Below are positions 3,158 through 52,866 of a stretch of 64,000 nucleotides of DNA, one piece after another. The notes under the pieces are model-generated. The model saw nothing but the letters and a program-made list of their open reading frames with translations. It made no database searches and had not been told where the DNA came from. A program made the position numbers and the translations under genes. The stretch covers positions 73,810 to 137,809 of the forward strand of contig JAUYOV010000007.1 in NCBI GenBank assembly GCA_030697795.1, read 5' to 3'. How positions within the stretch are numbered: position 1 is the stretch's first letter; each line of letters opens with the position of its first letter. The DNA is from a bacterium. Its GTDB lineage: Bacteria; Patescibacteriota; Minisyncoccia; JACQLN01.

Positions 3158-3158
3158 A

Positions 3159-6248: not shown

Positions 6249-6251
6249 ATC

Positions 6252-36682: not shown

Positions 36683-36685
36683 AAT

Positions 36686-37722: not shown

Positions 37723-38508
37723 ATGATTAATCACCCGAGAAAATACTTTTGGCTTGGCTTAGTTTTGGTTTTTTTGTTGGGTATTTTTGGTGGCGCTTAT
37801 TTGGTTTTAAGAACCACGGTTAGCTATGGCGAAGAAGAAGCTTCTACACCGCTGTCGGCAGGGAAATCGAGCGACGAACTGTTAGCCGAACTTTTAACAC
37901 TTAACGAACAAGAAAAAGAAAGCCAAAATGCTTATGTCGCGCCCGAAGATAAAAACTTAACAGATGATTTTTTAAGCACAATGGTTTCTGCCACTGGCAT
38001 ATCTGAAGCAGCTGTCAGAAAAGCTGAGAGTTCTGATTTTATGGTAGAAACGGTTTTGCCTTATTTTAAGTCAAACGAAATCAACTTACTTCCTATAATA
38101 CCGACTTCTGTTTTTAAAACAGTATCAGATTCAAAACTAAATTATAAAAAATATTTTACCGATACCGAAAAAGACGCGACAAATATATATGGTGCCATTA
38201 ACAAGATTCTAGATGTTGATTTAGAGAACATATCCGAAACGAAAGTTATAAATAATCTTACAACTTACTCCGAAACCTTAAGCATATCGTTTGGAAAACT
38301 TTCAGAAGTAAGTGTTCCTAAAAAATATACCGAACTTCACAAAAATATTTTGTTAAGTGCCATCTCTGCAAAAAAAATTGCGGAAGCAATGATTAACCGA
38401 GAAGAAGACCCTTTAAAAACCTTGATTGTTCTAAACCAATTCGACGAAGTTGTTTTGTTTTGGACAAAAACTTTTGGCGATTATCAAAAATATTTTTTGT
38501 TAAAGTAA
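37723..38508 (+). CDS. Hypothetical secreted/membrane-anchored protein (first gene of T4SS-like cluster)
   Basis: 261 aa. N-terminal TM/signal. Confidence 0.45.
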   Translation: MINHPRKYFWLGLVLVFLLGIFGGAYLVLRTTVSYGEEEASTPLSAGKSSDELLAELLTLNEQEKESQNAYVAPEDKNLTDDFLSTMVSATGISEAAVRKAESSDFMVETVLPYFKSNEINLLPIIPTSVFKTVSDSKLNYKKYFTDTEKDATNIYGAINKILDVDLENISETKVINNLTTYSETLSISFGKLSEVSVPKKYTELHKNILLSAISAKKIAEAMINREEDPLKTLIVLNQFDEVVLFWTKTFGDYQKYFLLK

Positions 38509-38511
38509 CTA

Positions 38512-41124
38512 ATGGAAAATAATAAAAAACACAAAAAAATAATATTAGTTACTTTAATATTGTTTATGTTTTTTTCTCTATTAATACCTAAAAAAGTAGA
38601 TGCTTTTGCTCCTTTTGGCGTTACCATAACTCTAAAAGACGTAGAAAGAAAAGCAGACGCATTTAAAAAAAAGCTTGGAAAATTTGGTGAAATTGCCTTT
38701 CAAGCTCTAAGAAAAAGAATGTTGATCCAGATCCAAAATGATTTGGTTAATTGGGCGCAAGGCAACGGAGATCCAAGATTTATAACAAATCCTGGAAAAT
38801 TTATTAAAGAAAACGCTACGTTTGCAGCAGTATCAACTATAGATAAATTTTTTAGACAACACGGAACCGACATCTGTTCTCCATTTAAAGCTAACGTACA
38901 ATTTTTAGTAAACAAAACCCAATTTTTAAGGGAAGAACAGCTACGTTGCAGCTGGACGGACGTTAAAGAAAATATGGAAAAGTTTGCTAATAATTTTGAG
39001 GATGGCGGCTGGACATCTTGGTTAAAACTTCACGAAACCAGAAACACATTACCCGGAGTCTACTTGGCCTCTACACAGCTTATAGGCCAGGAAGTTGCTC
39101 TTGCCGGAAATACAGCCCAAGCCAAGCTTTCAGCTGGCAAAGGTTTTTTGGATCAGAAAAAGTGCGCGGTATATACAATTCGTGCCGAATATACAATAAG
39201 TGGCGATGCCATAGACTCGGAAGGAAATTTAATAAGTCCAGACTCTCCACAATTTCAAGGTTTTACTGGTGTGGGGATATCGGATCCTGTAAAACCCCTA
39301 AAACCAATAGATATGGATAAACTACCGCCAAACGCAACATGTATCCAAGAAGAAACTGTAACACCAGGAAGTGTTGTTGGGGATTTTGTTACACAAGGAT
39401 TATTAAAGGGAAGTTTAGACAGTATAGTAAATGCTACTGAACTTAGTCAAATAGTTAATGCTGTTTTAGATGCTTATATAAATAAAGTTGCCCGTGATGG
39501 TTTATCTAACGTAAAAACTGGCAATGGATCATGGACATCGGCAAGTAAAGCTAATGGTGGAACATATAGTAGTTTGGATACTATAAAAACAAGCCAATTA
39601 GGCTTTGAAAGTCCCGAGGTAATTTCTTTATTAAATAGACTGATAGGATTTCAAAATACAGCGGGCCAACTAATAAACCAAATAAATTCTTTGGTAAGAA
39701 GCGAAGAACAAGCTGAAAATTTTAAAGAGAAGCTGAAAAATGACATTACAGCAATCAAACTTTCTACTGTGGGTGTAAATTTGGGTGGCGAAACTGACGA
39801 AACAGATGATGTTATTGATAGGCTTTACCACAGAAAAAATTACAACGATGAACCAAAGAACCCTGGCCCATATGTGGCTAATCAAGTTTTTTATAATGTA
39901 ATTGGTGGCTTATGGGAACAAATAGAAACTAAGCTAGAAGACATAGAAAATAAAAGCTGTTCAATTGCCAGTATCCCAGATATTCGAATCTACGCATCGC
40001 CTAAAAAAGAAGCACTGCCATTCACGGATGGTAATGGTAAAGTTTTTATTTGGCTCCCAGAAACCCTTACTTCTCCTACTGGAGCTCGTGCACCTTTTAC
40101 ATATCTTACATATGATGGAACGTTTACCCAAAATGTTGAAGATGTAGAACCAACAAAAATGACATCTTTTGATGCTTGGAAAAGCAGCTACTTAACGACT
40201 AACGGACTAATAGTGGCTGGGTCGGCAAAAAGTATAAATAAAACAACGGCTCAAGCATATGCAGAATCTATATCAAATTCAAAAAAGATTGCAGAAACCT
40301 TTCAAGAGGACTTAAAGGAGGTGTCGGAAGTAGTTGATGGCACAAGCAGGCTTACTTCTTTGCTTACAGATTACGACAAAGCGCTAAGAGAAACTAACAC
40401 TATAAAAGCAATGCAAGACTACTTATCTGCCTTAGAATCTAGTGATGAAAACCAACTCAAAACCAAGCGATCTGTTCTATTAGAAAAACAGCTTGAAGCC
40501 AGAAATAAATGGCGTTTAGACCAAGAAACAATATTAAAAGACTCAAACATCTCTATAACAGAAAAAGATAAAGTTGCCGCTAAAATTAGAATAATAGAAA
40601 TAGCTATAGACGCTATAGAAAGCTCTTTAAGAGGTTTGGCATCACTTGCCCCAGATTTAACGTCAAATTATATTTCTCTTAATACCGAAAATTTTTCGGA
40701 ACTCTCAAAAGATGAAGTTATAGAACTGGAAGAAAACACCAGAATTTATATTCGTTCTAGGATACCTACACCAGAACTAATTAAAATAATAGCTGTTTTA
40801 GATTCAGTAGATTTTATTAAAAACGGAGAAAGCGTTTCTGATGCTGTAGCTAACGCTTTGAGTATAAATATTCCACAAATAGAAAAAATGCTGGAAGAAA
40901 AAGAAAGCAGAGCTAGTTCATATTCTACAGATGTAACTAATACAGTTGGTAATTTCCTAACAAAAGAAGACGAAAACGAGGTGGGTAACATAGCAGAAAA
41001 AAGAAAGGAATTGGGAGTTACTGGTGGAGAAAGCGAGTGGGAAAAATATTATAAAAATAGATTTCAGTTGGCTTATGCGGTCTTAATTGATGACTATTTT
41101 ACAAATAAATTTCCCTGCAAATAA
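38512..41124 (+). CDS. Large (870 aa) secreted protein of the T4SS-like cluster, function unknown
   Basis: Signal peptide (LILFMFFSLLIPKKVDA). Long coiled-coil-rich C-terminal half. Start 4 nt after upstream stop. Confidence 0.5.
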   Translation: MENNKKHKKIILVTLILFMFFSLLIPKKVDAFAPFGVTITLKDVERKADAFKKKLGKFGEIAFQALRKRMLIQIQNDLVNWAQGNGDPRFITNPGKFIKENATFAAVSTIDKFFRQHGTDICSPFKANVQFLVNKTQFLREEQLRCSWTDVKENMEKFANNFEDGGWTSWLKLHETRNTLPGVYLASTQLIGQEVALAGNTAQAKLSAGKGFLDQKKCAVYTIRAEYTISGDAIDSEGNLISPDSPQFQGFTGVGISDPVKPLKPIDMDKLPPNATCIQEETVTPGSVVGDFVTQGLLKGSLDSIVNATELSQIVNAVLDAYINKVARDGLSNVKTGNGSWTSASKANGGTYSSLDTIKTSQLGFESPEVISLLNRLIGFQNTAGQLINQINSLVRSEEQAENFKEKLKNDITAIKLSTVGVNLGGETDETDDVIDRLYHRKNYNDEPKNPGPYVANQVFYNVIGGLWEQIETKLEDIENKSCSIASIPDIRIYASPKKEALPFTDGNGKVFIWLPETLTSPTGARAPFTYLTYDGTFTQNVEDVEPTKMTSFDAWKSSYLTTNGLIVAGSAKSINKTTAQAYAESISNSKKIAETFQEDLKEVSEVVDGTSRLTSLLTDYDKALRETNTIKAMQDYLSALESSDENQLKTKRSVLLEKQLEARNKWRLDQETILKDSNISITEKDKVAAKIRIIEIAIDAIESSLRGLASLAPDLTSNYISLNTENFSELSKDEVIELEENTRIYIRSRIPTPELIKIIAVLDSVDFIKNGESVSDAVANALSINIPQIEKMLEEKESRASSYSTDVTNTVGNFLTKEDENEVGNIAEKRKELGVTGGESEWEKYYKNRFQLAYAVLIDDYFTNKFPCK

Positions 41125-43391
41125 TGCCTAAGCTAATAAATTTAATTACGAAAAATTATTTTAAACTCCTAACTTTTGTTGGCTTGTTTTTGTTTGTACC
41201 AAAAATGGCTTTTGCGCAGTGGACTTTAATGGGTCTGGCCATGGATTCATTTTGGGACATTGTGCTGGGTATAGTTTCCCTGGTTATAGATTTTTTTGGA
41301 ATGTTATTAATAACCGCGGCGGGGTCTATAGTAAATTATGTTTTTAGTTTTCAATCTTTCGCCACTGTACCCGTGGTTCAAATCGGCTGGACCATCAGCC
41401 GAGACTTAGCCAATATGTTTTTTATATTAATAATGTTGCTTATAGCTTTTGGCACGGTTTTGCGTATGGAAACTTATAGCTGGAAAAAACTTATACCCAA
41501 ACTGGTTATTGCCGCTTTAACCATTAACTTTAGCTTGATAATCTGCGCCGCCGTAATTGATTTTGGCAATTCTGTTTCTAAATTTTTTATTTCTGGCGGT
41601 AATACTAGCGAAGAACTGGACGTGAGCGCCTCTATTTTAAGTTCTTTGCGCGCCGGCACCATCGCCCAGTTAAGAAACAACGTCAGCGGCAATTCGCCTG
41701 TAACATCTTTAATAATGGCCTCCATCGGCCAGCTTATAATGTACGTGGTTATTGCTCTTATATTACTGGCTTACGCGGGAGTTATGATATCTAGGTTAAT
41801 AAAATTGTGGATTTTAATTATAATCTCGCCTTTGGCTTGGGTAAGCTCGGCCTTGCCGGGAATTAAAGGCGTGCCGGGGCTTAGCAACCGCTTTAGCGAA
41901 TGGTGGGGCAAATTTTTTAACCTGGCTGTATTTTTTCCTGTTTCTATAAGCTTTTTTTTGATGCTGGGCTTGATAGCTGGGTCTACATTTAATTCGCTGG
42001 AACAAAGCACTATAAATGATATTAGCGGTAGCAATTTTGACAGCCTAAGAGACGCCGGCGGATTTTGGGAAGTACTTTTTCCATCTACGGGTTTTTCGGT
42101 AATAATGCAGTTTATTCTGGTGATTGGCATTTTATGGTACGGCTTAGAGCAGGCCAAAGCCTCGGGCACTTACGGCGGTAAATTGGTGGTGGGCTGGGCC
42201 GAACAAGGCAGAAAATGGGCGGAAGGTAAGTTAAAAACCAGCCCACGATTGGTTGGCGGAACCGCCTTGAGAATGGCTGATCGGCTTGCGGGAACAGGAG
42301 CGGCCACCAGAGGTATAGCTAGAGGCTTAGAATATTTAGAAAAAAAGCCACTAATAGGCCGAGCTATTGGCGGAGCCGGCACAAGGTTTGCGGCTCAACA
42401 AAAGGCGCTTAATGATGCTGCGGGCAAAACTGCTAAGCTCCGTCCTAACGATATAGAAGTTAAATTAAAACAAGCAGCTTTTACGCCCGAAGGTTTAGCT
42501 GAACGCGCTGGTTTAATAAAGAATTTAATAGACAAGGGGCAATTTACTTTGGACCAAAAACCTGAATTTGAGAAGGAATGGCTTAGTATGCTTCAGACGT
42601 TTCAAAACTTTGGCGGAAGTGTAGTTGATCTTATAAAAAAACGTCCAGACTTAGCTTTAAACGAAAATGTTCAAAAAATGATTGGGCGCGATGTTAATGC
42701 TCCACCACCCGTACAGGCTAAATGGAACAAAATTTCAACCCTCGCAACACCAGAAGCTAAAGAAGCCGATATTCATAAAATACTTAATGAGGATATATTT
42801 AAAACATCTGCTGATATTGCAGGTATTCAAAAAGAAGCCTTTGATACAAAAGGAAAATTGGATCCAGTACAACTTACACAATACGATAGGATTGGTGGTG
42901 ATATGAAAACAAGAAAAGAAACACATGAAACAGACATCGAAAGCAATAATAGAGAAATTAAAGAACTGGAAATTCAACTTGCAGCCGCAAGAAACCAAAA
43001 TAACGCCGCTGACATTACCCGTCTTGAACATATAATAGAAGGACTAGCTTCGGCCGAAGAAAACCTAATGAGAAATTACACGGTAGAAATGAAAGATCTT
43101 ATGACTCAACAAATCCAAGTATCTGGCCGAACGGGGCAAAAAATGTTGCTTGATTTTTTGGCTAAGGAGTCTGAAAAAGCGGGCACTATGACCCAGGGCA
43201 ACTTAAATTCTTTAGCTTCCAAAAATAAGGCTGCTCATTTGGAACTTATGAAATATCTTAGCCTTGTGGCTCCTGGCATGAAAGGTAAATGGAAAGACAG
43301 TATTTATAAACAAGTCATAACCAACGAAACATTAAATACTATGCCTGATCCCTTAGCGGCAGCTCCACCACCACCTCCAGCAGGTCCATAA
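41124..43391 (+). CDS. VirB6/TrbL-like polytopic membrane protein with long C-terminal coiled-coil tail ending in poly-Pro
   Basis: 755 aa. 6+ hydrophobic helices in the first ~330 aa. Position adjacent to the VirB3/VirB4-like genes. C-terminus ...AAAPPPPPAGP. ATGA overlap with upstream gene. Confidence 0.5.
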   Translation: MPKLINLITKNYFKLLTFVGLFLFVPKMAFAQWTLMGLAMDSFWDIVLGIVSLVIDFFGMLLITAAGSIVNYVFSFQSFATVPVVQIGWTISRDLANMFFILIMLLIAFGTVLRMETYSWKKLIPKLVIAALTINFSLIICAAVIDFGNSVSKFFISGGNTSEELDVSASILSSLRAGTIAQLRNNVSGNSPVTSLIMASIGQLIMYVVIALILLAYAGVMISRLIKLWILIIISPLAWVSSALPGIKGVPGLSNRFSEWWGKFFNLAVFFPVSISFFLMLGLIAGSTFNSLEQSTINDISGSNFDSLRDAGGFWEVLFPSTGFSVIMQFILVIGILWYGLEQAKASGTYGGKLVVGWAEQGRKWAEGKLKTSPRLVGGTALRMADRLAGTGAATRGIARGLEYLEKKPLIGRAIGGAGTRFAAQQKALNDAAGKTAKLRPNDIEVKLKQAAFTPEGLAERAGLIKNLIDKGQFTLDQKPEFEKEWLSMLQTFQNFGGSVVDLIKKRPDLALNENVQKMIGRDVNAPPPVQAKWNKISTLATPEAKEADIHKILNEDIFKTSADIAGIQKEAFDTKGKLDPVQLTQYDRIGGDMKTRKETHETDIESNNREIKELEIQLAAARNQNNAADITRLEHIIEGLASAEENLMRNYTVEMKDLMTQQIQVSGRTGQKMLLDFLAKESEKAGTMTQGNLNSLASKNKAAHLELMKYLSLVAPGMKGKWKDSIYKQVITNETLNTMPDPLAAAPPPPPAGP

Positions 43392-43400
43392 AATAAAAAT

Positions 43401-44087
43401 ATGAACAGCCAACAACTAACATTAGACCAAATAGAACAACTAAACCAAGTTTCGGACCCAGTGGCCCGAAGACGCTTTTCTGTTCTGTTTCAGTTGCCCC
43501 AAGACTTGCAAACTGCTTTTGAAAGCGAGCAAACCGAAAATAGCGTTTGGGATATTGCTAAGGTAAAATATGATTTAGTCGATAGCGACGTCAGCAAAGT
43601 TTCACGAATAATCGGCTTAATATTTTTGGGTGAACTGCCCATTAAAAACTTTATTGCCGAATTAAAAAATAAATTAAATGTAGATATTCAAAAAGCCCAA
43701 GCCATTGCTCAAGATATTAACCAAGCCATCTTCCAGCCGGTCAGAACAAGTTTGATGCAAGTGCATGGGATAACCTCTACCGAAAATCCGAAATCCTCCT
43801 CCTTCGCTAAAGCTACGAAGGACAAGCAAATACCCCTACTCCGCCCACCCTTCGCCAGAGGCTACGGCGTGGCACAGCAACCTGTTAAACTTACACCACC
43901 GGCCTATCAACCTAGTTACGATAATGCCCAAAAAAGAAGAGATGAGGTGTTAAGTAAAATTAGACAGCAACCCCCTCCAGCTAAGCCCGCCTCGTTTTAT
44001 TTTTCTCGCAATATAAGACCAAATAACCTGAAGAAAAGTAAAATGACGAAGAGAGTTAATAATAAGTACGATGGATTTTTTAGTTAA
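43401..44087 (+). CDS. Hypothetical protein (T4SS-like cluster); contains in-frame GC-rich palindromic motif
   Basis: 228 aa. Internal segment aaatcctcctccttcgctaaagctacgaagg (43794-43821) coding SSSFAKATKD, see findings. Confidence 0.45.
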   Translation: MNSQQLTLDQIEQLNQVSDPVARRRFSVLFQLPQDLQTAFESEQTENSVWDIAKVKYDLVDSDVSKVSRIIGLIFLGELPIKNFIAELKNKLNVDIQKAQAIAQDINQAIFQPVRTSLMQVHGITSTENPKSSSFAKATKDKQIPLLRPPFARGYGVAQQPVKLTPPAYQPSYDNAQKRRDEVLSKIRQQPPPAKPASFYFSRNIRPNNLKKSKMTKRVNNKYDGFFS

Positions 44088-44122
44088 CACACTAATATAT
44101 AAATGACAAATGAATCCAAAAA

Positions 44123-44155
44123 CCCTAAATCATAAATCCGAAACTCTAAACAAAC
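44123..44155. repeat. Left arm of inverted-repeat element carrying four-helix-bundle gene (CTAAAT-unit family)
   Basis: ccctaaatcataaatccgaaactctaaacaaac. Reverse complement resembles right arm at 44531-44575. Confidence 0.6.
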
Positions 44156-44159
44156 ACTA

Positions 44160-44519
44160 ATGAACCAAATTACAAACAAGAATAATTACGACCTAGAAGA
44201 AAGGACGTTAAAATTTGCCCAAAGAGTAAATGAATATGTCCGTAAGTTATCAAGGACAATAACTAACATAGAGAATGGCAAACAATTAGTGAGATCAGGT
44301 GGATCAGTAGGAGCAAACTATATAGAAGCTAACGAATCCCTTGGTAGAAAAGACTTTATGATGAGAATTAAGATATCCAAAAAAGAAACAAAAGAAAGTA
44401 GATACTGGCTAATACTAACAGAGCCGAATAAAGACAACCTACTTGAAAAAGAAAGTTTGATTAAGGAATCTACGGAGCTTATGAAAATATTTGGTTCAAT
44501 CCTAGAAAAATCAAAATAG
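44160..44519 (+). CDS. Four-helix-bundle protein (family often found in 23S rRNA intervening sequences)
   Basis: 119 aa. ...TLKFAQRVNEYVRKLSRTITNIENGKQLVRSGGSVGANYIEANESLGRKDFMMRIKISKKETKESRYWLILTE matches the four-helix-bundle (TIGR02436-type) signature (QLxRS..SIGANI.EA...S.KDF...I..KE..ET.YWL). Confidence 0.7.
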   Translation: MNQITNKNNYDLEERTLKFAQRVNEYVRKLSRTITNIENGKQLVRSGGSVGANYIEANESLGRKDFMMRIKISKKETKESRYWLILTEPNKDNLLEKESLIKESTELMKIFGSILEKSK

Positions 44520-44530
44520 GTTATTGGTAA

Positions 44531-44575
44531 ATTGTGATTTATAATTTGTTTAGGATTTAGATATTAGAATTTAGT
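44531..44575. repeat. Right arm of inverted-repeat element carrying four-helix-bundle gene
   Basis: aattgtgatttataatttgtttaggatttagatattagaatttag. Confidence 0.6.
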
Positions 44576-44591
44576 ATTTCACACACATATT

Positions 44592-44870
44592 ATGCAATTT
44601 CAGGTTCCACAATTTATAGAAATGGAAGATAAAATAATCGGCCCGTTAACCCTAAAGCAGTTTGGCTTTGTGGCGGTGGCCGGTGTACTTTGTTTTATAT
44701 TTTTTAGCACTCTTACCACCACTTTTGCGTTTATTCTTTCTTTCCCTGTGGCTTTAGCGGCTCTGGTTTTGGCTTTTGGCAAAATTAAGGGCCTACCAGC
44801 CTTAAAATATTTATCGTCGTTTATTAAATTTTCCTTAAAGCCACAATTATACTTGTGGAAGAAGAAATGA
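44592..44870 (+). CDS. PrgI-family / VirB3-like small membrane protein (precedes VirB4 as in Gram-positive T4SS)
   Basis: 92 aa. MQFQVPQFIEMEDKIIGPLTLKQFGFVAVAGVLCFIFF... fits the PrgI family N-terminal pattern (..P.FI..EDKI.GPLTL.Q) plus two TM helices. Confidence 0.55.
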   Translation: MQFQVPQFIEMEDKIIGPLTLKQFGFVAVAGVLCFIFFSTLTTTFAFILSFPVALAALVLAFGKIKGLPALKYLSSFIKFSLKPQLYLWKKK

Positions 44871-44892
44871 TAAACAATCAAATTATAAATAC

Positions 44893-44985
44893 TAAATCCG
44901 AAACTCTAAACAAACTCCAAATGCCAATTTACCAAATTAGAATTTGTGATTTAAATATTGTTTAGGATTTAGATATTAGAATTTA
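44893..44985. repeat. 'Empty' copy of the four-helix-bundle-carrying inverted-repeat element (left + right arms with about 25-nt gene remnant)
   Basis: ctaaatccgaaactctaaacaaac | tccaaATGccaatttaccaaattag | aatttgtgatttaaatattgtttaggatttagatattagaatttag. Arms near-identical to those at 44123 and 44531. Confidence 0.6.
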
Positions 44986-44991
44986 GAGATT

Positions 44992-45660
44992 ATGGCAAAT
45001 ACTTCTTCAACCCACCAACTTATAGAAACCAAAGAAATTAAAGATGGTCTTGTTGTTTTAAAAAATGGGGGATTAAGAGCTATTTTGATGGTATCTTCCA
45101 TAAACTTTGCTTTAAAATCCAGCGAAGAACAAGAAGCCATAATCGACCGCTTTCAGGGTTTTATAAATTCCATAGATTTTCCTGTTCAAATTTTGGTTCA
45201 ATCCAGAAAACTGGATATTTCTGAATATTTAAAATTTCTAAACGAAAGAATCGGCATACAAACCAACGAGCTCTTAAAAATACAGACTTCTGAATATATT
45301 AATTTTATACAAGAATTAATTAAGCTAACCAATGTTATGTCTAAGTTCTTTTATGTGATAATTCCCCTAAGTACGGTGGCCGTTCTAGCAACAGGGTTTT
45401 TTTCTAAGTTTTTTTCTAAAAACAAAAAAGGCGTTCAAGATCAAAAAGACTTAAACTTTGAAACACAAAAAAATACAATTCAACAAAGAGTAGACCAAGT
45501 TACCAGTTTGTTAAGTTCTATGGGTTTAAAAGCGATACCCTTAGAAAAAGAAGCTTTAATCGAGCTTTTGTATACATCGTATAACCCCGGCAGCGAAGTT
45601 AAGCAAAAGAATATGGAGGCCTTAATTGCCACAGGGGATGAAGCTAAAAAATCAGGATAA
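44992..45660 (+). CDS. virB4: VirB4/TrbE/PrgJ-like ATPase, N-terminal fragment (gene interrupted at A6 run)
   Basis: 222 aa. ...IKDGLVVLKNGGLRAILMVSSINFALKSSEEQEAIIDRFQGFINSIDFPVQILVQSRKLDISEYL is the typical VirB4 N-terminal domain. Confidence 0.75.
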   Translation: MANTSSTHQLIETKEIKDGLVVLKNGGLRAILMVSSINFALKSSEEQEAIIDRFQGFINSIDFPVQILVQSRKLDISEYLKFLNERIGIQTNELLKIQTSEYINFIQELIKLTNVMSKFFYVIIPLSTVAVLATGFFSKFFSKNKKGVQDQKDLNFETQKNTIQQRVDQVTSLLSSMGLKAIPLEKEALIELLYTSYNPGSEVKQKNMEALIATGDEAKKSG

Positions 45661-45665
45661 AATAT

Positions 45666-47426
45666 ATGGAACCGAAAAACCAACAAATCGCCTCGGCCGG
45701 CACCCTAGAAGATCTTTTAGCCCCGCCGGCTTTACAGGTCAATCCTTCTAATTTGCAGATAGGCGAGAAATTTTCTAGAACAATATTTGTGGCTAATTAC
45801 CCTAGATTTTTGAGCGTGGGCTGGTTTTCGCCTATTATTAACTTAGATAAAATTTTTGATGTTTCTTTATTTATTCAACCCTCCGAAACTGGTCCTGTTT
45901 TAAAAAAACTAACCAAAAAAACAGCGCAGATCGGCGCGCAGATGTCGGAAAAAGAAGAGGGGGGTTTTATACGCGATCCCATGCTAGAAACAGCTTACCA
46001 AGATTTAGAATCTTTGCGCGATAAACTGCAACAAGGCACTGAAAGGTTTTTTCGGGCCGGCTTATATCTTACTTTTTATGCTAGTTCCGTAAAAGAACTG
46101 GATGATGTTGAAAGCAGAGTAAATACGATATTAGAATCAAAATTAATATATTCTAAAGTTGCGGTGTTCCAGCAACAAGAAGGCTATACCTCTACCCTGC
46201 CTTTAAATTTAGATAAGCTTCAGGTTTATAATAGCTTAAACACTGGCCCGCTTTCTTCTTTCTTTCCTTTTGTTTCAGCCGATCTTACCTCCAACAAAGG
46301 TGTGCTTTATGGCATAAACAGGCACAATAACAGCCTTATACTTTTTGATAGATTCTCTTTAGAAAACGCCAACACGGTTGTTTTTGCTAAATCCGGTTCG
46401 GGCAAAAGCTATACTGTTAAATTAGAGGTTTTACGTTCCTTAATGCTAGGCACCGATGTAATAATTATAGACCCAGAAAGCGAGTATAAATACTTAAACG
46501 ATGTAGTGGGCGGAACTTTTGTAAATATTTCTTTAACTTCTGCTAACCATATAAATCCGTTTGATTTAACTATACCCAGCGAAGATGAAAGCCCAGCCGA
46601 AGTTTTAAAAGCTAATATTATAGAGCTGACCGGCTTATTAAAAGTAATGTTGGGCCAGTTAACGCCCGAAGAAGATTCAATTATAGACAAAGCCTTAACC
46701 GAAACCTATGCTTCGCGCGATATCAGCATAAATTCGGATTGGCGGGGCAAACAGGTACCTTTAATGGGCGACCTGCATACCGTATTAAAAAACATGCAGG
46801 GCGCGGAAAAATTAGCCATTCGCATAGAAAAATATGTGACAGGCACATTCTCTGGCTTTTTAAATCAACCCACCAATGTGGCCTTAAACAATAACTTAGT
46901 TGTTTTTTCTATAAGAGATCTGGAACCAGAACTTCGCCCAGTGGCTATGTATATTTTATTGCACTATGTTTGGAACTTAATAAGAGCGCAAAGAAAGAAA
47001 AGAATAATGGTGGTGGACGAGGCCTGGTGGATGATGCAACATCAAGAAGCCGGCGCGTTTTTATTTAGCATTGCCAAAAGATGCCGTAAATATTATTTGG
47101 GGCTTACCACTATAACCCAAGACGTGGAAGATTTTATGAAATCGCAATACGGCAAGCCCATTGTAACCAATTCCGCCCTGCAAATATTGCTAAAGCAATC
47201 GCCGGCGGCCATAGACACGGTGGCTCAAACATTTAATTTAACCGATGAAGAAAAGTTTTTACTTTTAGAGTCCAGCGTGGGCGAAGGCATATTTTTAGCC
47301 GGTTTAAAGCGCGCGGCTATAAAAGTGGTGGCTTCTTATACCGAAGATCAAGTTATTACATCCGACCCAGCGCAATTATTGGAAATAGAAGCGGCTAAGA
47401 AAGAACTAGCCGAAGCACAGAAATGA
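45666..47426 (+). CDS. virB4: VirB4/TrbE/PrgJ-like ATPase, C-terminal ATPase fragment
   Basis: 586 aa. Walker A FAKSGSGKS, Walker B/DEAW (IMVVDEAWWMM), and the conserved motifs of T4SS VirB4 ATPases. Confidence 0.85.
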   Translation: MEPKNQQIASAGTLEDLLAPPALQVNPSNLQIGEKFSRTIFVANYPRFLSVGWFSPIINLDKIFDVSLFIQPSETGPVLKKLTKKTAQIGAQMSEKEEGGFIRDPMLETAYQDLESLRDKLQQGTERFFRAGLYLTFYASSVKELDDVESRVNTILESKLIYSKVAVFQQQEGYTSTLPLNLDKLQVYNSLNTGPLSSFFPFVSADLTSNKGVLYGINRHNNSLILFDRFSLENANTVVFAKSGSGKSYTVKLEVLRSLMLGTDVIIIDPESEYKYLNDVVGGTFVNISLTSANHINPFDLTIPSEDESPAEVLKANIIELTGLLKVMLGQLTPEEDSIIDKALTETYASRDISINSDWRGKQVPLMGDLHTVLKNMQGAEKLAIRIEKYVTGTFSGFLNQPTNVALNNNLVVFSIRDLEPELRPVAMYILLHYVWNLIRAQRKKRIMVVDEAWWMMQHQEAGAFLFSIAKRCRKYYLGLTTITQDVEDFMKSQYGKPIVTNSALQILLKQSPAAIDTVAQTFNLTDEEKFLLLESSVGEGIFLAGLKRAAIKVVASYTEDQVITSDPAQLLEIEAAKKELAEAQK

Positions 47427-47427
47427 C

Positions 47428-47538
47428 AAATTCCTAATTTCTAATCAATTTCTAATGCTTAAATGCCTAATTTCAGAACTTAGCCATTAGACATTTTGGT
47501 TTGATTAGATATTAGAAATTAGATATTAGACATTTTAA
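47428..47538. repeat. Inverted-repeat intergenic element, TCTAAT-unit family (copy 5)
   Basis: caaattcctaatttctaatcaatttctaatgcttaaatgcctaatt ... gtttgattagatattagaaattagatattagacatttt. Confidence 0.7.
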
Positions 47539-47539
47539 A

Positions 47540-47941
47540 ATGGATGAACAAAACGAATTAGAAGCCGAGGGCTTAACAGAAGAAGAAATTGAGGGCGTTA
47601 AAAACGGCGATATTAAAGAACCAGTGTTTCCAACTATGATTTTTGCCGCCGCTTTAACTAAAGATACTTTAGATATAATAGAGGCGTTGTGGGTTGTTAC
47701 TTTTGGTATAATAGGCACAATAACAAATACATTTATGGTGCCTCTAGTTTATACTTATGTGAATACTAACTTAAACCTATCCAGAAGATATATTTATAAA
47801 AGACTCATCGGCAAAGCTATAGCGGAATTTGTGCCATATTTATCGGCTGTCTCGTTTTGGTCGTTGTTTGTTTGGAAAGCTCATCAAAGAGAAAAAAAGA
47901 AAATGGAAAAGGTGCTAAGCATTATGAATAAATCATCTTAG
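47540..47941 (+). CDS. Hypothetical small membrane protein (acidic N-terminus, 2-3 TM)
   Basis: 133 aa. Immediately downstream of virB4. Confidence 0.4.
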   Translation: MDEQNELEAEGLTEEEIEGVKNGDIKEPVFPTMIFAAALTKDTLDIIEALWVVTFGIIGTITNTFMVPLVYTYVNTNLNLSRRYIYKRLIGKAIAEFVPYLSAVSFWSLFVWKAHQREKKKMEKVLSIMNKSS

Positions 47942-47944
47942 ATA

Positions 47945-48781
47945 ATGAAATTAAAACATACAAAACTATTTACGATTCTAGTTATAACTATTTCTATAAT
48001 AACAGTGCCTATTTTTTCTTTGGCTCAAGAAAATCTAGATCAAGTTAGCGATACAGATATTGAGCAGGTAGAAAATTTAATAAACTCTACAATAGAAACA
48101 GCTCTTAAGGAAGAGCGAGCAGAAGGCAACGACTTTAATTTAGATATAGTTTGGAAAGCCAATACTTTATTGCCTTACGATTATAAAGGTAAAGCCTGGC
48201 CCAGCTCTTTATCGTCTATCGTTTTTTACGCTATGGCCGACGTGCCCAACCCCGATAGTTTAGTTTATACCTGGTTAATAGACGATATTTCTTCTAACAA
48301 AGAGGGTCCCGAACTTCAAGGCCGGGGTAAAAGCACCTTTAACTGGTTTACATTCCAAACTCCAGAGTTTACACACGAGTTAAGGGTTTTTGCCCAAGAC
48401 AACGATGGGCGCAAGGGTAGTGCTTCTTTAAATATTAAAACAGTAAGCCCAGAAATTAATTTTAGTATAATCAACAACAATATTTTTAATAATTCAATTT
48501 TTGGTTCATTAAAACTCCAACCGGGTAGCAGTACTAATATATTGGTTCGCCCCTTTTACTTTAATTTATTTAATCTGGATGGTTTAGATTTTATATGGAA
48601 GTTAAACGGCAAAGCCGATAAAAATTCTGGCCCCAGAAAAGATATTCTGCCTTTGAACATTTCCTCTTCAGCCCTACCGGGCGCTTATTCTAATTTACGC
48701 CTAGAATTAAAAAATAATAAGCAAAAAAATAATATTTTTGACAGTGCTAATGCCACAATCAATATAAATATAATTAAATGA
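47945..48781 (+). CDS. Hypothetical secreted protein
   Basis: 278 aa. Signal peptide LFTILVITISIITVPIFSLAQ. Asn-rich. Confidence 0.45.
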   Translation: MKLKHTKLFTILVITISIITVPIFSLAQENLDQVSDTDIEQVENLINSTIETALKEERAEGNDFNLDIVWKANTLLPYDYKGKAWPSSLSSIVFYAMADVPNPDSLVYTWLIDDISSNKEGPELQGRGKSTFNWFTFQTPEFTHELRVFAQDNDGRKGSASLNIKTVSPEINFSIINNNIFNNSIFGSLKLQPGSSTNILVRPFYFNLFNLDGLDFIWKLNGKADKNSGPRKDILPLNISSSALPGAYSNLRLELKNNKQKNNIFDSANATININIIK

Positions 48782-48785
48782 TAAA

Positions 48786-48879
48786 TAAATCCGAAGCACG
48801 AAATCCGAAGCACGAAACAAATCTCAAATTCAAAATTTTAAATTACAAATTTTGGGTATTAAGATTTGGATATTGGAAT
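48786..48879. repeat. Inverted-repeat intergenic element, CGAAAT/GCACGAA-unit family (copy 2)
   Basis: aaatccgaagcacgaaatccgaagcacgaaacaaatctcaaattcaaaat ... attttgggtattaagatttggatattggaatttgtttg. Confidence 0.6.
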
Positions 48880-49722
48880 TTGTTTGTAATTTGTTGCTTG
48901 GGATTTGTAATTTTGTCGTCTTCGTCTTCGGCGCTGGAGGTTTCTTTTCCCACAGTTCAAGGCGCGGAAGTGGGCGACTCTATGGGGCCGGCTGAATGGA
49001 TAAAATATATTTTTCTTTTGGCCCAAGCTCTGGTGGGCCTCGCCATAATATACGCCTTTGTTAGAGCGGGCTTATTATGGATGACGGGCGGCGACAATCA
49101 AACCAGAATAGGCGAGGCTAAAAAGTGGATCACCGGCGCTATAACAGGACTCGTTATACTTTTAGGCTCTTATTTATTTTTAAAAACTATAAACCCGCAA
49201 CTGGTTAACATTAAAAACCCGGGCGTAAACTTTGGCACCGACGCACCCAGTGGTATATTAGATTTTTGGAATAAATTGTTTTTTAAAAAACATGGCGTGG
49301 GAGAATCTTGTGGGTCTAGTTTTGATTGCCAAGGCCTTCTTGAGTGCGTGAGAGACCCTAAAAACCCCAGAGCATCTAGTGGTGTATGCACCAACACAAG
49401 CGAGTTATTTTTAGGATATGAAGCTGGTCATGCATGCGGAAAAGATTCTGAATGTGGTGATGATTTAACTTGTGACGACGAAAAAAAAGTTTGTGTCGCT
49501 GGAACAAAAACAGCTGGGGGATCAATATGCGGACCAGGAAATCAGTGTTCTAGTGAACAAAGATGTTTTAAAACATCTTCTGGCGAATTAGCTGAAAACA
49601 TACCTGGCGAGTGTAGTTCTTACAAAGCGCTAGGCGAAGATTGTAGAACAGATATCGCCAATGAATGCCGTGGTATTGGAACAGAATGCGACCTAACAAC
49701 TAAAAAGTGTATAAAAAAATAA
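48880..49722 (+). CDS. VirB2/TrbC-like pilin-family N-terminal domain fused to a C-terminal domain of four Cys-rich repeats
   Basis: Probable TTG start at 48880 (signal-like LFVICCLGFVILSSSSSA). Helix-MTGGDNQTRIGEAKKWI-helix as in the 7220/7746/8101 paralogs. C-terminus has four repeats of C-x-C-type modules (CGSSFDCQGLLEC; CGKDSECGDDLTC; CGPGNQCSSEQRC; CRTDIANECRGIGTEC). The track ORF starts at 48778 inside the repeat. Confidence 0.5.
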   Translation: MFVICCLGFVILSSSSSALEVSFPTVQGAEVGDSMGPAEWIKYIFLLAQALVGLAIIYAFVRAGLLWMTGGDNQTRIGEAKKWITGAITGLVILLGSYLFLKTINPQLVNIKNPGVNFGTDAPSGILDFWNKLFFKKHGVGESCGSSFDCQGLLECVRDPKNPRASSGVCTNTSELFLGYEAGHACGKDSECGDDLTCDDEKKVCVAGTKTAGGSICGPGNQCSSEQRCFKTSSGELAENIPGECSSYKALGEDCRTDIANECRGIGTECDLTTKKCIKK

Positions 49723-50859
49723 ATGAGTCAAAAAGGTAAAAAACTTCTAATTATTTTATCGGTAATTTTAGGCTTAACTTTAATAAGTTTGGGTATATAT
49801 TATTTTTTCTTTAAAAAAACCGTTGAAGCACCGGCAACTGTAACAGATGAAGAATTACTAGGCGGAGAAGTAACTCCGAGTGCCAAAGAAAGGTTAATTC
49901 CCATAACCGAAGAGGCTGTTTTAGGCGCGGGCTTAAACATAATCGACCAAGAAGCTGGGGTAAGTAAAATTGTTTACGCGGCTTGGGACGGCAGTATTAA
50001 CCAAATAGATTTAAACGGCGCGGGTAAGAACAAAATTGGCCTAGTGGCTGTAGACAGAATCGGTGAGGTTAATGTTTCAGAATCCGGAGAGCTTTTGTCT
50101 TTTAAATATAGTTTAGCTTCGGGCGCCAATAGATTTATAATTTATAATGTAACCGACAAAACCCTAAAAACCCTGTCTCAAGAAACAGAGGATGTTTCTT
50201 TAAGTAATAGCAATAAAGAAGCAGTTATTGTTTATTCCGATAGAAATGGCAAAAAAATAGCTATAAGTTATGACGATTTTTCAAAAAATAGGGATATTAT
50301 TCCAACCAAAATACCCGATATTAAAATAGATTGGTTTAACAGCGATAACATTGCCCTAACCACAAGACCGTCCGGCGTGGCCCAAGGCATTTTTTATGTG
50401 TTAAATATTAAAACTAAAAAAAACACCCGTGTATTGGGCGGGGAATACGGTTTAACTACTAATTTTTCACCCAGTGGTAAAAAAGTTTTAGTTTCCAGAA
50501 CAAATTCCGATGGGCGCAATTTAAAACTTTCTAGTATTAACCTAGACAAAAAAACAGAAAGAAATATCAGCCTGTTTACACTGCCCGAAAAATGTTCGTG
50601 GGGCCAAGATGAAAGAATTCTATTTTGTTCTGTTTTTAAAGTTAACGACCCAGATATTTTTGTAATGCCCGACGATTATTACAAAAGACGCGTGCGCTCC
50701 AACGGCGAAGAAATTGTGAGAATAAACACCGAAACCGGCCAAATCCAAAAAGTTATAGACGGGTCTTTTGATGCTTCAAATTTGTTTTTAGTGCCAGACG
50801 AGAGCTACCTTTTCTTTATAAATAAGATAGATGGACGTCTATATCGTTTGACGCTCTAA
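49723..50859 (+). CDS. Membrane-anchored TolB-like (PD40) beta-propeller repeat protein
   Basis: 378 aa. N-terminal TM. Repeated ...SPSGKKVLVSRTNSDGRNLKL... / ...IVYSDRNGKKIAISYDD... blocks characteristic of PD40/WD40-like propellers. Confidence 0.5.
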   Translation: MSQKGKKLLIILSVILGLTLISLGIYYFFFKKTVEAPATVTDEELLGGEVTPSAKERLIPITEEAVLGAGLNIIDQEAGVSKIVYAAWDGSINQIDLNGAGKNKIGLVAVDRIGEVNVSESGELLSFKYSLASGANRFIIYNVTDKTLKTLSQETEDVSLSNSNKEAVIVYSDRNGKKIAISYDDFSKNRDIIPTKIPDIKIDWFNSDNIALTTRPSGVAQGIFYVLNIKTKKNTRVLGGEYGLTTNFSPSGKKVLVSRTNSDGRNLKLSSINLDKKTERNISLFTLPEKCSWGQDERILFCSVFKVNDPDIFVMPDDYYKRRVRSNGEEIVRINTETGQIQKVIDGSFDASNLFLVPDESYLFFINKIDGRLYRLTL

Positions 50860-50990: not shown

Positions 50991-51446
50991 TTAAGCAGGT
51001 TTGATTACTACTCTCCTTTCCTCTCCTTCGCCCACACTTTCACTCTTAACCCCGTCAATCTGTTCTACTGTTAAGTGTATTATCTTTCTTTCCATGGCCG
51101 ACATAATTCCCAGTTCTACAGCTTGGCCGGTTTCTAAAACTTTATGGGCGCTATTTTTGGCTAAAGCCACCAAATAATCTTCTTTTTCTTTTTGGTAGTT
51201 ATTAATATCAAAAACAAAACTGGAGAATATAGAAAAATCTCCAGTTTTTTTAGCCACCAGTAAAGATATTATATACTGAAAAGATTTTAGATTCTCTCCG
51301 TCTCGGCCAATTAAAAACCCTGCTTCAGTAATAGAAACATTGGCTCTTATCCGTCCATTATTATTTTCTATAGTTAGCTCCGGTTCAATATTTAAAAAGC
51401 TAAATATTTTTAAAATAGTTTCCCGAATTATTTCTGCATTTTCCAT
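50991..51446 (-). CDS. jag: Jag/KhpB-like KH + R3H domain RNA-binding protein
   Basis: 151 aa. KH-like GFLIGRDGENLKSFQYII and R3H-like ERKIIHLTV. Conserved position downstream of yidC. Confidence 0.7.
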   Translation of the reverse strand: MENAEIIRETILKIFSFLNIEPELTIENNNGRIRANVSITEAGFLIGRDGENLKSFQYIISLLVAKKTGDFSIFSSFVFDINNYQKEKEDYLVALAKNSAHKVLETGQAVELGIMSAMERKIIHLTVEQIDGVKSESVGEGEERRVVIKPA

Positions 51447-51541
51447 GAGTTTTCGCCAATATGACTAATCTAAACTAATATACCAATAGATTTAATTAGC
51501 TATATTCGCGTCAATTCGTATATTAGCTTTTATTGGCTATA
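51447..51541. repeat. Inverted-repeat intergenic element, ATTCG-unit family; contains 27-mer identical to 56824-56850
   Basis: tatattcgcgtcaattcgtatattagc at 51501-51527 is identical to 56824-56850. Confidence 0.7.
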
Positions 51542-52249
51542 TTAGCGATTACGCATAATAACATACTGCTGAAGTAGGGTAAACAAAGTTGTAACTACCC
51601 AATAAAGAGCAAGCCCCGAAGGCAGTTTCCAAGAAATTAATACAGTAAACACTGGCAAAAAGTATAGAGTTTGCTTGGTTATGGCTTGAGTTATGTATTC
51701 ATCGGAGGCTTTGGGTGCGTTAGGCAATTTACTGTTTTTGGGCATCGTCATTTTAGCCTGAAAAAACTGGCTCACGCCGGCTAATATAGCCAAAACACTG
51801 TTCGGCAATGCTAAATTAACAAAACCAAAAAACATAGGATCAATAACATTTGGGTTATTAACAAAAGAATAAAGATCCGATAAACTATTTGGATCAAACC
51901 CCTTAAGAAAGACTTGATATAGAGCTATAAGAATAGGAATTTGGACCAACAAGGGCAAACAGCCAGACATGGGGTTAACCTTGTTCTCTTTATAGAACGC
52001 CATTAACTTTTTTGACTGCTCTTCTTTATTATCTTTATATTTTTCTTGAATTTCTTTGATTTTCGGCTGAATTTCTTGCAAAGCCCTTTGGGATTTAACA
52101 GCTTTGCCGGTCAGGGGCCAAAAAACAAGTTTAACAATCGCCGTTACAGCTATAATGGCAAGGCCAATGTCGGAACCGGGTATGGTGTTGTATAAAAAAA
52201 CTAAAAGATTAAATAAGGGGCGATATAAAAATTCGTTGAAAATATTCAC
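51542..52249 (-). CDS. yidC: Membrane protein insertase YidC (short monoderm-type)
   Basis: 235 aa. ...GLAIIAVTAIVKLVFWPLTGKAVKSQRALQEIQPKIKEIQEKYK...MSGCLPLLVQIPILIALYQVF is typical of YidC/Oxa1. Confidence 0.9.
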   Translation of the reverse strand: MNIFNEFLYRPLFNLLVFLYNTIPGSDIGLAIIAVTAIVKLVFWPLTGKAVKSQRALQEIQPKIKEIQEKYKDNKEEQSKKLMAFYKENKVNPMSGCLPLLVQIPILIALYQVFLKGFDPNSLSDLYSFVNNPNVIDPMFFGFVNLALPNSVLAILAGVSQFFQAKMTMPKNSKLPNAPKASDEYITQAITKQTLYFLPVFTVLISWKLPSGLALYWVVTTLFTLLQQYVIMRNR

Positions 52250-52252
52250 TTT

Positions 52253-52352
52253 AATATCTAATGTCTAATTACTAATATCTAATCAATTTCTAATGTCTAA
52301 ATAGTCTTATCATTAGTCATTGGGATTTGATTAGAAATTAGATATTAGAAAT
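52253..52352. repeat. Inverted-repeat intergenic element, TCTAAT-unit family (copy 6), inside the rnpA-yidD-yidC operon
   Basis: atatctaatgtctaattactaatatctaatcaatttctaatgtctaaat ... gggatttgattagaaattagatattagaaattt. Confidence 0.7.
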
Positions 52353-52355
52353 TTG

Positions 52356-52586
52356 TTACTTACACCTAATTATTCTTTTAATAGCCAGCCGAAGACCCCT
52401 GCACACCCCGTGTTTATCAATAGACTCCACACTATATTGTGAACAAGTAGGTTTTTGCCTGCAACCAGAAGGTAGGCCTGAGTTTAAGTTAAACATAGGC
52501 GATAAATAAATAAAATTAAAAAACCCCGTGCTAGGCGATAGGGTTTTTTGATAAATTTTAATCAAAAATATGGCTAGTTTCTTCAT
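52356..52586 (-). CDS. yidD: Membrane protein insertion efficiency factor YidD
   Basis: 76 aa. ...CRQKPTCSQYSVESIDKHGVCRGLRLAIKRIIRC matches the YidD Cys motif (CRF.PSCS.Y...A....G...G..L...RI.RC). Confidence 0.75.
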   Translation of the reverse strand: MKKLAIFLIKIYQKTLSPSTGFFNFIYLSPMFNLNSGLPSGCRQKPTCSQYSVESIDKHGVCRGLRLAIKRIIRCK

Positions 52587-52587
52587 C

Positions 52588-52854: not shown

Positions 52855-52866
52855 TTTATATAAAAA

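Follow-up and report, generated by a model that had tools for sequence, protein, structure and literature searches.

The closest described counterparts of the gene cluster analyzed here, at positions 37723 to 50859 of a 64,000-nt stretch (the window) of contig JAUYOV010000007.1 from a Minisyncoccia bacterium (Patescibacteriota; assembly GCA_030697795.1), are the type IV secretion systems (T4SSs) of the Patescibacteria. Three accounts of these systems (PMC10633639, PMC12102498, and PMC12857230) are drawn on below, and the first two describe a T4SS that derives from the conjugation machinery of Gram-positive bacteria. In Southlakia epibionticum ML1, a T4SS and a pilin array (SEML1_0006-0019) are essential for epibiotic growth, and no coupling protein or relaxase was recognized in the system (Wang et al. 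2023, PMC10633639). In a survey of 3,035 Patescibacteria genomes, VirB4 was present in 2,417 and formed a monophyletic clade within MPF_FATA, with TrsD as its most abundant partner and with PrgI, VirB6, and VirB2-like genes nearby (Quinonero-Coronel et al. 2025, PMC12102498). The same survey describes pilin arrays as a feature of these systems and found relaxases to be almost absent, genes for type IV coupling proteins (T4CPs) to adjoin virB4 only rarely, and, in Paceibacteria and Microgenomatia, dnaA, dnaN, ksgA, rnpA, and rpmH in the virB4 neighborhood. A FEMS review (PMC12857230) treats the system as a distinctive Gram-positive-type T4SS subtype with potential pili and raises the idea of a pilus conduit, and tubular structures that are maybe T4SS pili have been seen at the parasite-host interface (bioRxiv 10.64898/2026.06.21.733656).

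The locus in the window closely resembles these systems. It carries VirB4 with a separate TrsD-like protein, a PrgI/VirB3-like protein, a VirB6-like protein, and VirB2-like pilins, including an array; no relaxase or coupling-protein gene adjoins virB4, and, as in those systems, the cluster is chromosomal and lies at the start of the genome near dnaA, dnaN, ksgA, rnpA, and rpmH. Every defining feature of the Patescibacteria T4SS that was checked (VirB4, TrsD, PrgI, VirB2-like pilins, lack of a relaxase and T4CP, and location) was found here. However, some differences were apparent. First, this is the Paceibacteria version, with most pilins ~37 kb from virB4 and with Cys-rich repeats on the pilin inside the cluster. 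Second, no peptidase or lysozyme gene lies immediately downstream of virB4. Third, essentiality is known only for the Saccharibacteria system. Finally, the sections of PMC10633639 and PMC12102498 that were consulted do not mention five proteins encoded here (261, 870, 228, 133, and 278 aa) or the β-propeller; virB4 neighbors matching no profile are left unannotated there (gray in Fig. 6). We consider the cluster likely to be a T4SS of the Patescibacteria type, in the form found in Paceibacteria/Parcubacteria, that is inherited vertically on the chromosome and is used by an episymbiont for contact with its host and not for conjugation. The absence of both a coupling protein and a relaxase argues against conjugation, and a non-conjugative nature is suggested by absences within the 64-kb window, in which domain scans covered open reading frames (ORFs) of at least 120 aa. 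An earlier note, made from the letters of this stretch, had proposed a host-interaction surface machine of a small-genome episymbiont, which is probably correct and agrees with both the results below and the literature. Its statement that this is not a described canonical architecture did not hold, as the system already appears in all three accounts.

The cluster consists of 11 consecutive ORFs on the plus strand plus one inserted ORF (Table 1). All gene positions proposed in the earlier note were confirmed, and all eleven ORFs are intact. The genes are tightly packed: the 870-aa gene ends and the 755-aa gene begins on the same base, 41124, positions 48778 to 48781 are common to the 278-aa gene and the pilin gene (both stop/start overlaps), and the other intergenic gaps range from 2 to ~160 nt. 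A promoter and terminator scan of the cluster was uninformative, with counts equal to the shuffled expectation. For comparison with relatives, one genome per species was scanned with the VirB4 sequence, which gave 23 loci (L001 and up), and gene order in these was determined by tblastn and family hidden Markov models.

Table 1. Coordinates of the T4SS cluster, its distal pilin genes, and neighboring features, numbered from the first base of the window.
Feature	Position	Strand	Remark
261-aa protein	37723..38508	+	First gene of conserved module; one N-terminal membrane segment
870-aa exported, mostly alpha-helical protein (predicted)	38512..41124	+	Candidate partner of VirB6 at the surface or in host contact
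755-aa "extended" VirB6-like polytopic membrane protein	41124..43391	+	Large helical C-terminal domain, Pro-rich tail
228-aa soluble basic protein	43401..44087	+	Adaptor or substrate candidate
119-aa four-helix-bundle (23S rRNA intervening-sequence-type) ORF	44160..44519	+	Variable insertion
PrgI/VirB3-like small membrane protein	44592..44870	+	Pfam PF12666
TrsD-like, 222 aa (VirB4 N-terminal domain as separate polypeptide)	44992..45660	+	NCBIfam
VirB4 ATPase, 586 aa, monoderm (MPF_FATA, CD1110-like) type	45666..47426	+	NCBIfam, Pfam
133-aa small membrane protein, downstream of VirB4	47540..47941	+	Hydrophobic helices, conserved position
278-aa exported protein (predicted)	47945..48781	+	Signal-like segment; certain aromatic residues and Gly invariant
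Fusion of a VirB2-type pilin domain with four Cys-rich repeats (16 Cys)	48778..49722	+	Pfam T4SS_pilin
378-aa membrane-anchored or exported TolB-like beta-propeller (predicted)	49723..50859	+	Family profile vs PDB
Distal VirB2-like pilin genes, three in an array (122 aa, 124 aa, 338-aa pilin-VanY fusion)	7220..9117	-	
LysM + M23 peptidase	33119..34225	-	Pfam LysM 3.9e-25, Peptidase_M23 9.1e-25
Origin-region context: jag/khpB (-), yidC (-), rnpA (-), rpmH (-), dnaA (+), dnaN (+)	50991..56085		Pfam

The ATPase core was recognized by direct family matches. PrgI, labeled PrgI/VirB3-like in the earlier note, matched PF12666 above the gathering score (4.7e-13) and TcpE at 3.6e-4 (Pfam); it has two hydrophobic helices and directly precedes TrsD in 21 of the 23 loci. 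VirB4 had its best NCBIfam match in the family conju_CD1110, over profile positions 185 to 728 (2e-109, 366.9 bits against a 325-bit cutoff) and also matched the Pfam families P-loop_TraG (2e-25), AAA_10, and DUF87, and its Walker A motif (AKSGSGKS, at residue 241) is intact. The TrsD-like ORF matched VirB4_plasma (1.5e-12, profile positions 101 to 234), conju_CD1110 (8.8e-6, positions 8 to 113), and TrsD (3.1e-5), all in NCBIfam, and these assignments place the predicted ATPase and TrsD with monoderm conjugation systems. The pGO1/pIP501 subclass (TrsC-TrsD-TrsE) of those systems has the same gene order, PrgI(VirB3)-TrsD-VirB4. The Gram-positive MPF_FATA systems (pGO1/pIP501 and CD1110-type integrative and conjugative elements [ICEs]) also share with this cluster the VirB3-like, TrsD, and VirB4 proteins and the lack of an outer-membrane core (VirB7, VirB9, and VirB10). 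However, there is no relaxase, T4CP, VirB1-type hydrolase, or recognizable VirB8-like protein in the cluster, which in turn has VirB2-type pilins that the Gram-positive systems lack and is chromosomal and vertically inherited rather than carried by a plasmid or ICE.

VirB4 is split, as the earlier note had pointed out, and its two frames are 5 nt apart. A frameshift or pseudogene was ruled out as the cause because TrsD and VirB4 are separate, adjacent ORFs in 22 of the 22 related loci that hold both; this is the normal, conserved TrsD+VirB4 arrangement, the feature found most often in Patescibacteria T4SSs according to PMC12102498. The same observation bears on the idea that the whole cluster is decaying, pseudogenized, and non-functional, for which the two frames and the foreign ORF sitting between two cluster genes could be taken as marks. 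Against this, the two-ORF arrangement is kept throughout, nonsynonymous divergence (dN) of VirB4 from relatives is 0.025 compared to a saturated synonymous divergence (dS) of ~1.2, the ORFs are intact, and the insertion is intergenic. The chance that the cluster is a decayed one is next to negligible.

The 755-aa protein has 7 to 8 hydrophobic helices in residues 13 to 343, followed by a helical domain of 400 residues and the tail. The earlier VirB6/TrbL-like label stood by fold and remote homology, but not by family assignment. The protein itself had no TrbL match and no significant match of any kind in Pfam, and the TrbL scores of its relatives were all below the gathering score (0.0068 in one of 11 locus homologues, and 3e-4 and 6e-3 in the distant homologues P0041 and P0045, respectively). 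An identical database protein carries the precomputed label PF19590, which we take to be a TrbL-like family. The AlphaFold model had a predicted local distance difference test (pLDDT) score of 77.6, and its best Foldseek matches in the PDB were to R388 TrwI/VirB6 (probability 0.94 to 0.98, E ~0.1). Thus, by fold comparison, the protein has a polytopic membrane domain with the VirB6 fold, and we accept it, from the model, as a putative "extended VirB6" that is sub-threshold by sequence. A type of this name is described in PMC12857230. Loop charges gave conflicting answers on membrane topology, and the large C-terminal domain may be cytoplasmic rather than extracellular. The 261-, 870-, 278-, and 378-aa proteins each have a single N-terminal hydrophobic segment by hydrophobicity analysis that fits predicted export or membrane anchoring.

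The fold match also allows comparison with the R388 Trw and Agrobacterium VirB systems (MPF_T). As in those systems, the pilins match Pfam TrbC/VirB2 (PF04956), and the 755-aa membrane domain superposes best on TrwI/VirB6. In virB operons, virB5 sits directly upstream of virB6, and here an exported helical protein, the 870-aa protein, is encoded directly upstream of the VirB6-like gene; it is, however, four times larger than VirB5 and has no detectable similarity to it. Unlike the MPF_T systems, the cluster has no VirB7, VirB9, VirB10, VirB11, or VirD4 and belongs to a cell with a single membrane.

Pilins were found both inside the cluster and at a distance. The in-cluster pilin matched Pfam T4SS_pilin (PF18895) over residues 72 to 129 (1.4e-5, just under the gathering score). 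Its 16 Cys residues, at positions 178 to 311, form four 4-Cys repeats, three of the form C-x5-C-x5-C-x6-15-C and a fourth, C-x7-C-x6-C-x6-C, which agrees with the earlier reading of a pilin-like protein with Cys-rich repeats. Homologues of this pilin range from 106 to 1580 aa in length, which means that the C-terminal extensions are variable add-ons. In the distal array, ~37 kb from virB4, the three genes matched T4SS_pilin at 1e-13, 2.4e-11, and 3.9e-9 (Pfam), the two short pilins additionally matched TrbC/VirB2 above the gathering score (1.3e-8 and 4.5e-8), and phmmer and hmmsearch showed that the distal pilins are related to the one in the cluster. The third distal gene (8101 to 9117, 338 aa) encodes a pilin domain joined to a D-Ala-D-Ala carboxypeptidase domain of the VanY type (VanY, 6.9e-6); a pilin-anchored cell wall enzyme of this kind would be an unusual combination. 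Beside the array, at 2426 to 7103, are ORFs of 243, 176, 460, 160, and 283 aa without a Pfam family, several of them polytopic. The part of this block at ~2 to 6 kb has a somewhat higher GC content (~0.43 to 0.44), and a PemK toxin gene lies in mid-block at 5156 to 5548. The block might belong with the pilins.

The genomic surroundings are those of a chromosomal locus. Upstream are the M23/LysM peptidase gene, pcrA/uvrD, and ksgA, the last immediately adjoining the cluster, and downstream are jag/khpB, yidC, rnpA, and rpmH (52867 to 53010), followed by the divergent dnaA and dnaN. The rest of the window holds housekeeping genes (gyrA, ftsH, pnp, an S1 protein gene, tyrS, a penicillin-binding protein gene, ruvC, and others) and small toxin-antitoxin pairs. 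VirB4 is 55 to 96% identical across the 23 loci, which are mostly from Patescibacteria/Candidate Phyla Radiation genomes, with three labeled "bacterium" and two labeled "Gammaproteobacteria." The closest relative is a metagenome-assembled genome of Candidatus Yanofskybacteria (VirB4 identity, 96%). In the nearer loci, the full order is ksgA-261-870-755-228-PrgI-TrsD-VirB4-133-278-pilin-propeller-jag-yidC-rnpA-dnaA-dnaN. The synteny comparison proposed in the earlier note thus showed the whole module to be collinear in L001 to L015; this order recurs in at least 15 Paceibacteria/Parcubacteria genomes, and the origin-region genes follow the cluster in the same order in L001 to L014. In L016 to L022, where VirB4 is 55 to 58% identical, PrgI-TrsD-VirB4 is kept, a pilin is nearby, and the propeller is present in most. 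This fixed order and site across relatives mean that the locus is vertically inherited and chromosomal and is not an ICE.

The earlier note had also concluded that the cluster does not look like an ICE, and the searches for mobility genes agree. No relaxase, VirD4/TcpA, VirB11, or integrase domain was detected by Pfam or NCBIfam in any window ORF of at least 120 aa. Within the window, this also answers the refuting condition set in that note (VirD4 and relaxase genes together with an integrase and att sites). A Walker A scan of the window returned as genuine P-loop NTPases only a Mg-chelatase (ChlI)-family ATPase, DnaA, FtsH, PcrA, and VirB4; a sixth match lies in the S1 protein and is incidental. 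No tRNA gene adjoins the cluster (the nearest is >17 kb off), no att-type direct repeats were found flanking it, and its GC content is like that of its surroundings. An ICE or ICE remnant that moves DNA between cells, with its relaxase, coupling protein, and integrase encoded outside the cluster, would be in keeping with the homology of VirB4, PrgI, and TrsD to Gram-positive conjugation proteins, with the relaxases carried by a few Patescibacteria genomes (PMC12102498), and with the fact that the inspection covered the 64-kb window rather than the genome beyond. However, housekeeping flanks in the same order across such divergent VirB4 loci, together with the lack of an integrase, adjoining tRNA, att-type repeats, relaxase, and T4CP within 64 kb, make this very improbable, and relaxases occur in only 103 of 3,035 genomes, whose T4SSs are not distinctive (PMC12102498).

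One neighbor may have a connection to the system. The M23/LysM peptidase gene is 3.5 kb upstream of the cluster, on the far side of pcrA and ksgA, and the comparison with related loci did not recover it there. VirB1-like matches carrying M23 or LysM domains are reported in PMC12102498, and a putative association of the peptidase with the T4SS, as a cell-wall-remodeling partner analogous to VirB1, is possible.

The fixed gene order extends to the proteins without a family, the largest of which is the 870-aa protein. It has a signal-like segment at residues 8 to 26 and four invariant Cys residues (C122, C146, C218, and C277), and no match in Pfam, NCBIfam, or the PDB; its family profile also gave nothing usable against the PDB. 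The structure prediction suggested in the earlier note was unusable for this protein, as the AlphaFold2 model, built from only 10 sequences, was poor (pLDDT, 56.5). Foldseek matches of this model to helical bundles in the PDB (ClyA, AhlB, and NheA, probability ≤0.07) were accordingly given no weight. An exhaustive family profile search found 4,011 clusters at 50% identity, 2,887 of them at 1e-10 or better. The members are mostly 470 to 680 aa and share only the N-terminal ~240 residues, and none of ten sampled members had a Pfam domain. The protein is mosaic in rate, with a conserved N-domain and a hypervariable C-terminal 450 residues. For instance, compared to relatives whose VirB4 is 87 to 95% identical, identity was 62 to 88% in the N-domain and 20 to 46% in residues 350 to 800. 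The dN of the protein was 0.57, and up to 0.86 in the C-terminal part, against 0.025 for VirB4. Positive selection on the C terminus was considered and is unproven: dS is saturated (1.2 to 3) and dN/dS is ~0.2 to 0.4. Because of this saturation, the fast change is a sign of weak constraint only and not of diversifying selection.

The other accessory proteins show a similar combination of conserved position and no known family. The 261-aa protein, with a hydrophobic segment at residues 11 to 29 and no Pfam or NCBIfam family, has a homologue directly upstream of the 870-aa homologue in L001, L003, L007, L008, and L009; the matches in L011 and L014 are weak. In an alignment of 12 homologues, the 228-aa protein always lies between the VirB6-like gene and prgI. 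It consists of a conserved N-domain and, after a disordered basic linker, a C-terminal motif, PY(R/N)E / Y-x-GFF, that is likewise conserved; it has no membrane segment and matched nothing in the PDB, Pfam, or NCBIfam; its family profile gave nothing usable against the PDB. Its positively charged C-terminal tail (PYRE.. or KY.GFF) recalls T4SS secretion signals, a likeness that is speculative. The 133-aa protein has hydrophobic helices from about residue 43 and no Pfam or NCBIfam match, and its position is kept in L001 to L009 and, weakly, in L011, L013, and L015. The 278-aa protein is collinear in L001 to L015; its family (13 homologues) has invariant G61, W70, P77, Y80, G82, Y108, and W110, with no PDB match even at E = 10 and no Pfam or NCBIfam match. 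By analogy only, it would occupy the place of the VirB8-like proteins of Gram-positive systems. Finally, the earlier TolB-like β-propeller assignment of the last gene was borne out by a profile of 17 homologues, which matched roughly 12 different PDB sequences of TolB (5.7e-7 to 6.6e-5). The single 378-aa sequence scored 0.0031 against NCBIfam propeller_TolB (TIGR02800), or 16.5 bits against a 343-bit cutoff, and no Tol-Pal genes occur in the window. Because the score is so far below the cutoff and Tol-Pal genes are missing, the protein is a predicted propeller but not TolB. Its gene accompanies those of VirB4 and the pilin in 18 of 23 loci, the most distant included.

In T4SSs generally, VirB4 acts as pilin dislocase and assembly ATPase, VirB3 is its membrane anchor, and VirB6 is the membrane platform at the base of the stalk. 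In F and T pili, both pilin termini are at the outer surface. On this basis, the VirB4 hexamer with its separately encoded N-domain (TrsD) would be anchored by PrgI to the VirB6 platform in the single membrane. The VirB4 module would pull VirB2-like pilins out of the membrane and polymerize them into a tube or pilus across the cell wall. The C-terminal extensions of the pilins (Cys-rich repeats and VanY) would be displayed on the exterior of the filament if the F/T-pilus topology holds, and three exported proteins, namely the propeller, the 278-aa protein, and the fast-evolving 870-aa protein with its translational coupling to VirB6, would build or decorate the wall-spanning, host-contacting part. 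The accessory set (the 870-aa and 278-aa proteins, the propeller, and the extended pilins) could then form a monoderm host-facing tip or wall-spanning module unknown in characterized T4SSs, in which host specificity would be determined by the 870-aa family, acting as a tip like VirB5, as an adhesin, or as a translocon; we offer this tentatively.

Within a host-contact T4SS, the role that we favor, as plausible, is that of a conduit for the uptake of host-derived macromolecules. Effector export is a rather doubtful role within the same explanation, and pure adhesion or junction formation is doubtful; a small remainder of the probability is assigned to no role. The lean to import comes from the essentiality of the Southlakia system, the dispensability of ComEC there, and the tubes at the parasite-host interface, and from nothing in the sequence itself. 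Several points weigh against reading the cluster as a host-contact T4SS that does not conjugate. First, VirD4-like genes are far from virB4 in most Patescibacteria genomes, according to PMC12102498, and a T4CP homologue may be encoded elsewhere in this genome. Second, no VirB8-like or VirB1-like component was identified in the cluster. Third, the VirB6 assignment draws on sub-threshold sequence matches and non-significant Foldseek E-values. Finally, the roles proposed for the 870-aa protein, the 278-aa protein, and the propeller come only from export signals, synteny, and evolutionary rate, and the outward-facing pilin termini are taken from F- and T-pilus structures rather than from these pilins.

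There is precedent for T4SSs that do not conjugate. Bordetella Ptl, Brucella VirB, Helicobacter pylori ComB, and archaeal Ced lack a canonical coupling protein and/or import DNA; however, they belong to different MPF classes with different partner sets, and the similarity of the present VirB4 to the Ced proteins is weak and sub-threshold. Two other explanations follow from these precedents. One is that the cluster has the identity given above but acts as an effector-export machine that delivers proteins into or onto the host bacterium; candidate substrates would be the 228-aa protein, with its basic tail, or proteins that are exported by Sec and then passed on to the pilus. Protein-secreting T4SSs without a T4CP do exist (Ptl and Brucella; PMC12102498), protein export is among the options suggested by Wang et al. 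(PMC10633639), many of the cluster proteins have Sec-type N termini, and the 228-aa protein, which is soluble and basic, ends in a conserved motif. But no effector has been identified, and an assembly factor is an equally good reading of the 228-aa protein. We regard a dedicated effector-export machine as unlikely.

The other explanation is a dedicated system for the uptake of DNA or other nucleic acids, analogous to H. pylori ComB or archaeal Ced. VirB4 has some similarity to CedB (2.6e-9) and CedD (4.3e-5), although these matches are far below the family cutoffs (36.3 bits against 700 and 22.4 bits against 600, respectively), no CedA-like protein or other Ced- or ComB-specific partner family was found, and the cluster has no nuclease or nucleic-acid-binding domain. 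In addition, these organisms lack nucleotide synthesis, ComEC is dispensable in Southlakia whereas the T4SS is essential, and feeding on host RNA has been linked to a lineage with T4SS-like tubes (bioRxiv 10.64898/2026.06.21.733656). A dedicated nucleic-acid importer is quite unlikely, and the host-contact T4SS of Paceibacteria type remains our preferred explanation of the cluster. Few machines are known to be essential to epibiotic life in this very large bacterial radiation, and the Patescibacteria T4SS is one of them. The locus contains nothing categorically new and is a clean, complete Paceibacteria example, in which the fixed 11-gene order runs on beyond the parts that earlier papers have named. 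If the 870-aa, 278-aa, and 228-aa proteins, the propeller, and the pilin fusions build the host-contact end, they would be a place to look for host specificity.

The one ORF of the cluster that does not follow the fixed order is the four-helix-bundle ORF. Its Pfam match to 23S_rRNA_IVP (1.3e-11) agrees with the fold named in the earlier note, which listed the ORF within the gene order of the cluster. At the site that separates the 228-aa gene from prgI (44088 to 44591 in the window), this ORF was found only in the window and in L009 (5745 to 6270); the same site holds a PDDEXK_3 ORF in L001 (8623 to 9031) and is empty in L003 (9034 to 9036). The L009 cassette is closely similar in DNA to the window copy, though the flanking 228-aa proteins are only 35% identical. 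From this distribution, the ORF is a variable insertion and not a T4SS component. The site looks like a hotspot for small selfish-looking ORFs.

The insertion is bracketed by 35-nt inverted arms (44120 to 44154 and 44545 to 44579) that belong to a family of intergenic hairpins, an arrangement that resembles an rRNA intervening sequence. Long-range pairing of these two arms was considered and rejected, as it is absent from the minimum-free-energy fold of the 504-nt region (z-score, -0.66). The hairpins themselves are AT rich, imperfect, and 80 to 120 nt long, and they fill the majority of the larger gaps between genes of the cluster and its surroundings (36567 to 36704, 44886 to 44986, 47422 to 47560, and 50869 to 50987), with others near 9150 and 10726 and at 34503 to 34603 and 52258 to 52353. 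Their core motif, TTAGATATTAGAAWTT, occurs 14 times in the window compared to 0.04 expected and is rare in the related loci. The fold z-scores are -2.5 to -4.8, and the 3′ arm ends 6 to 18 nt before the next start codon. The hairpins could be processing, terminator, or regulatory elements.

A few other features of the window were noted. Three small toxin-antitoxin-type modules are present in this reduced genome: a nucleotidyltransferase (Polbeta/MNT-type)/HepT pair at 15519 to 16377, an RHH/YafQ-ParE pair at 32521 to 33056, and the PemK/MazF gene at 5156 to 5548 beside the pilin array. On the minus strand at 21822 to 22388, a 188-aa protein matched the PaaX central Cas2-like domain (1.8e-21) and, weakly, CRISPR_Cas2; no CRISPR array was noticed nearby. 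At 61237 to 63897 is the gene for an 886-aa surface protein that combines a C-terminal dockerin domain with Ig-like domains of the ASH/DUF1573 type and a PKD-like stretch. In Southlakia, the essential adhesin-like proteins included envelope proteins with dockerin domains (PMC10633639).

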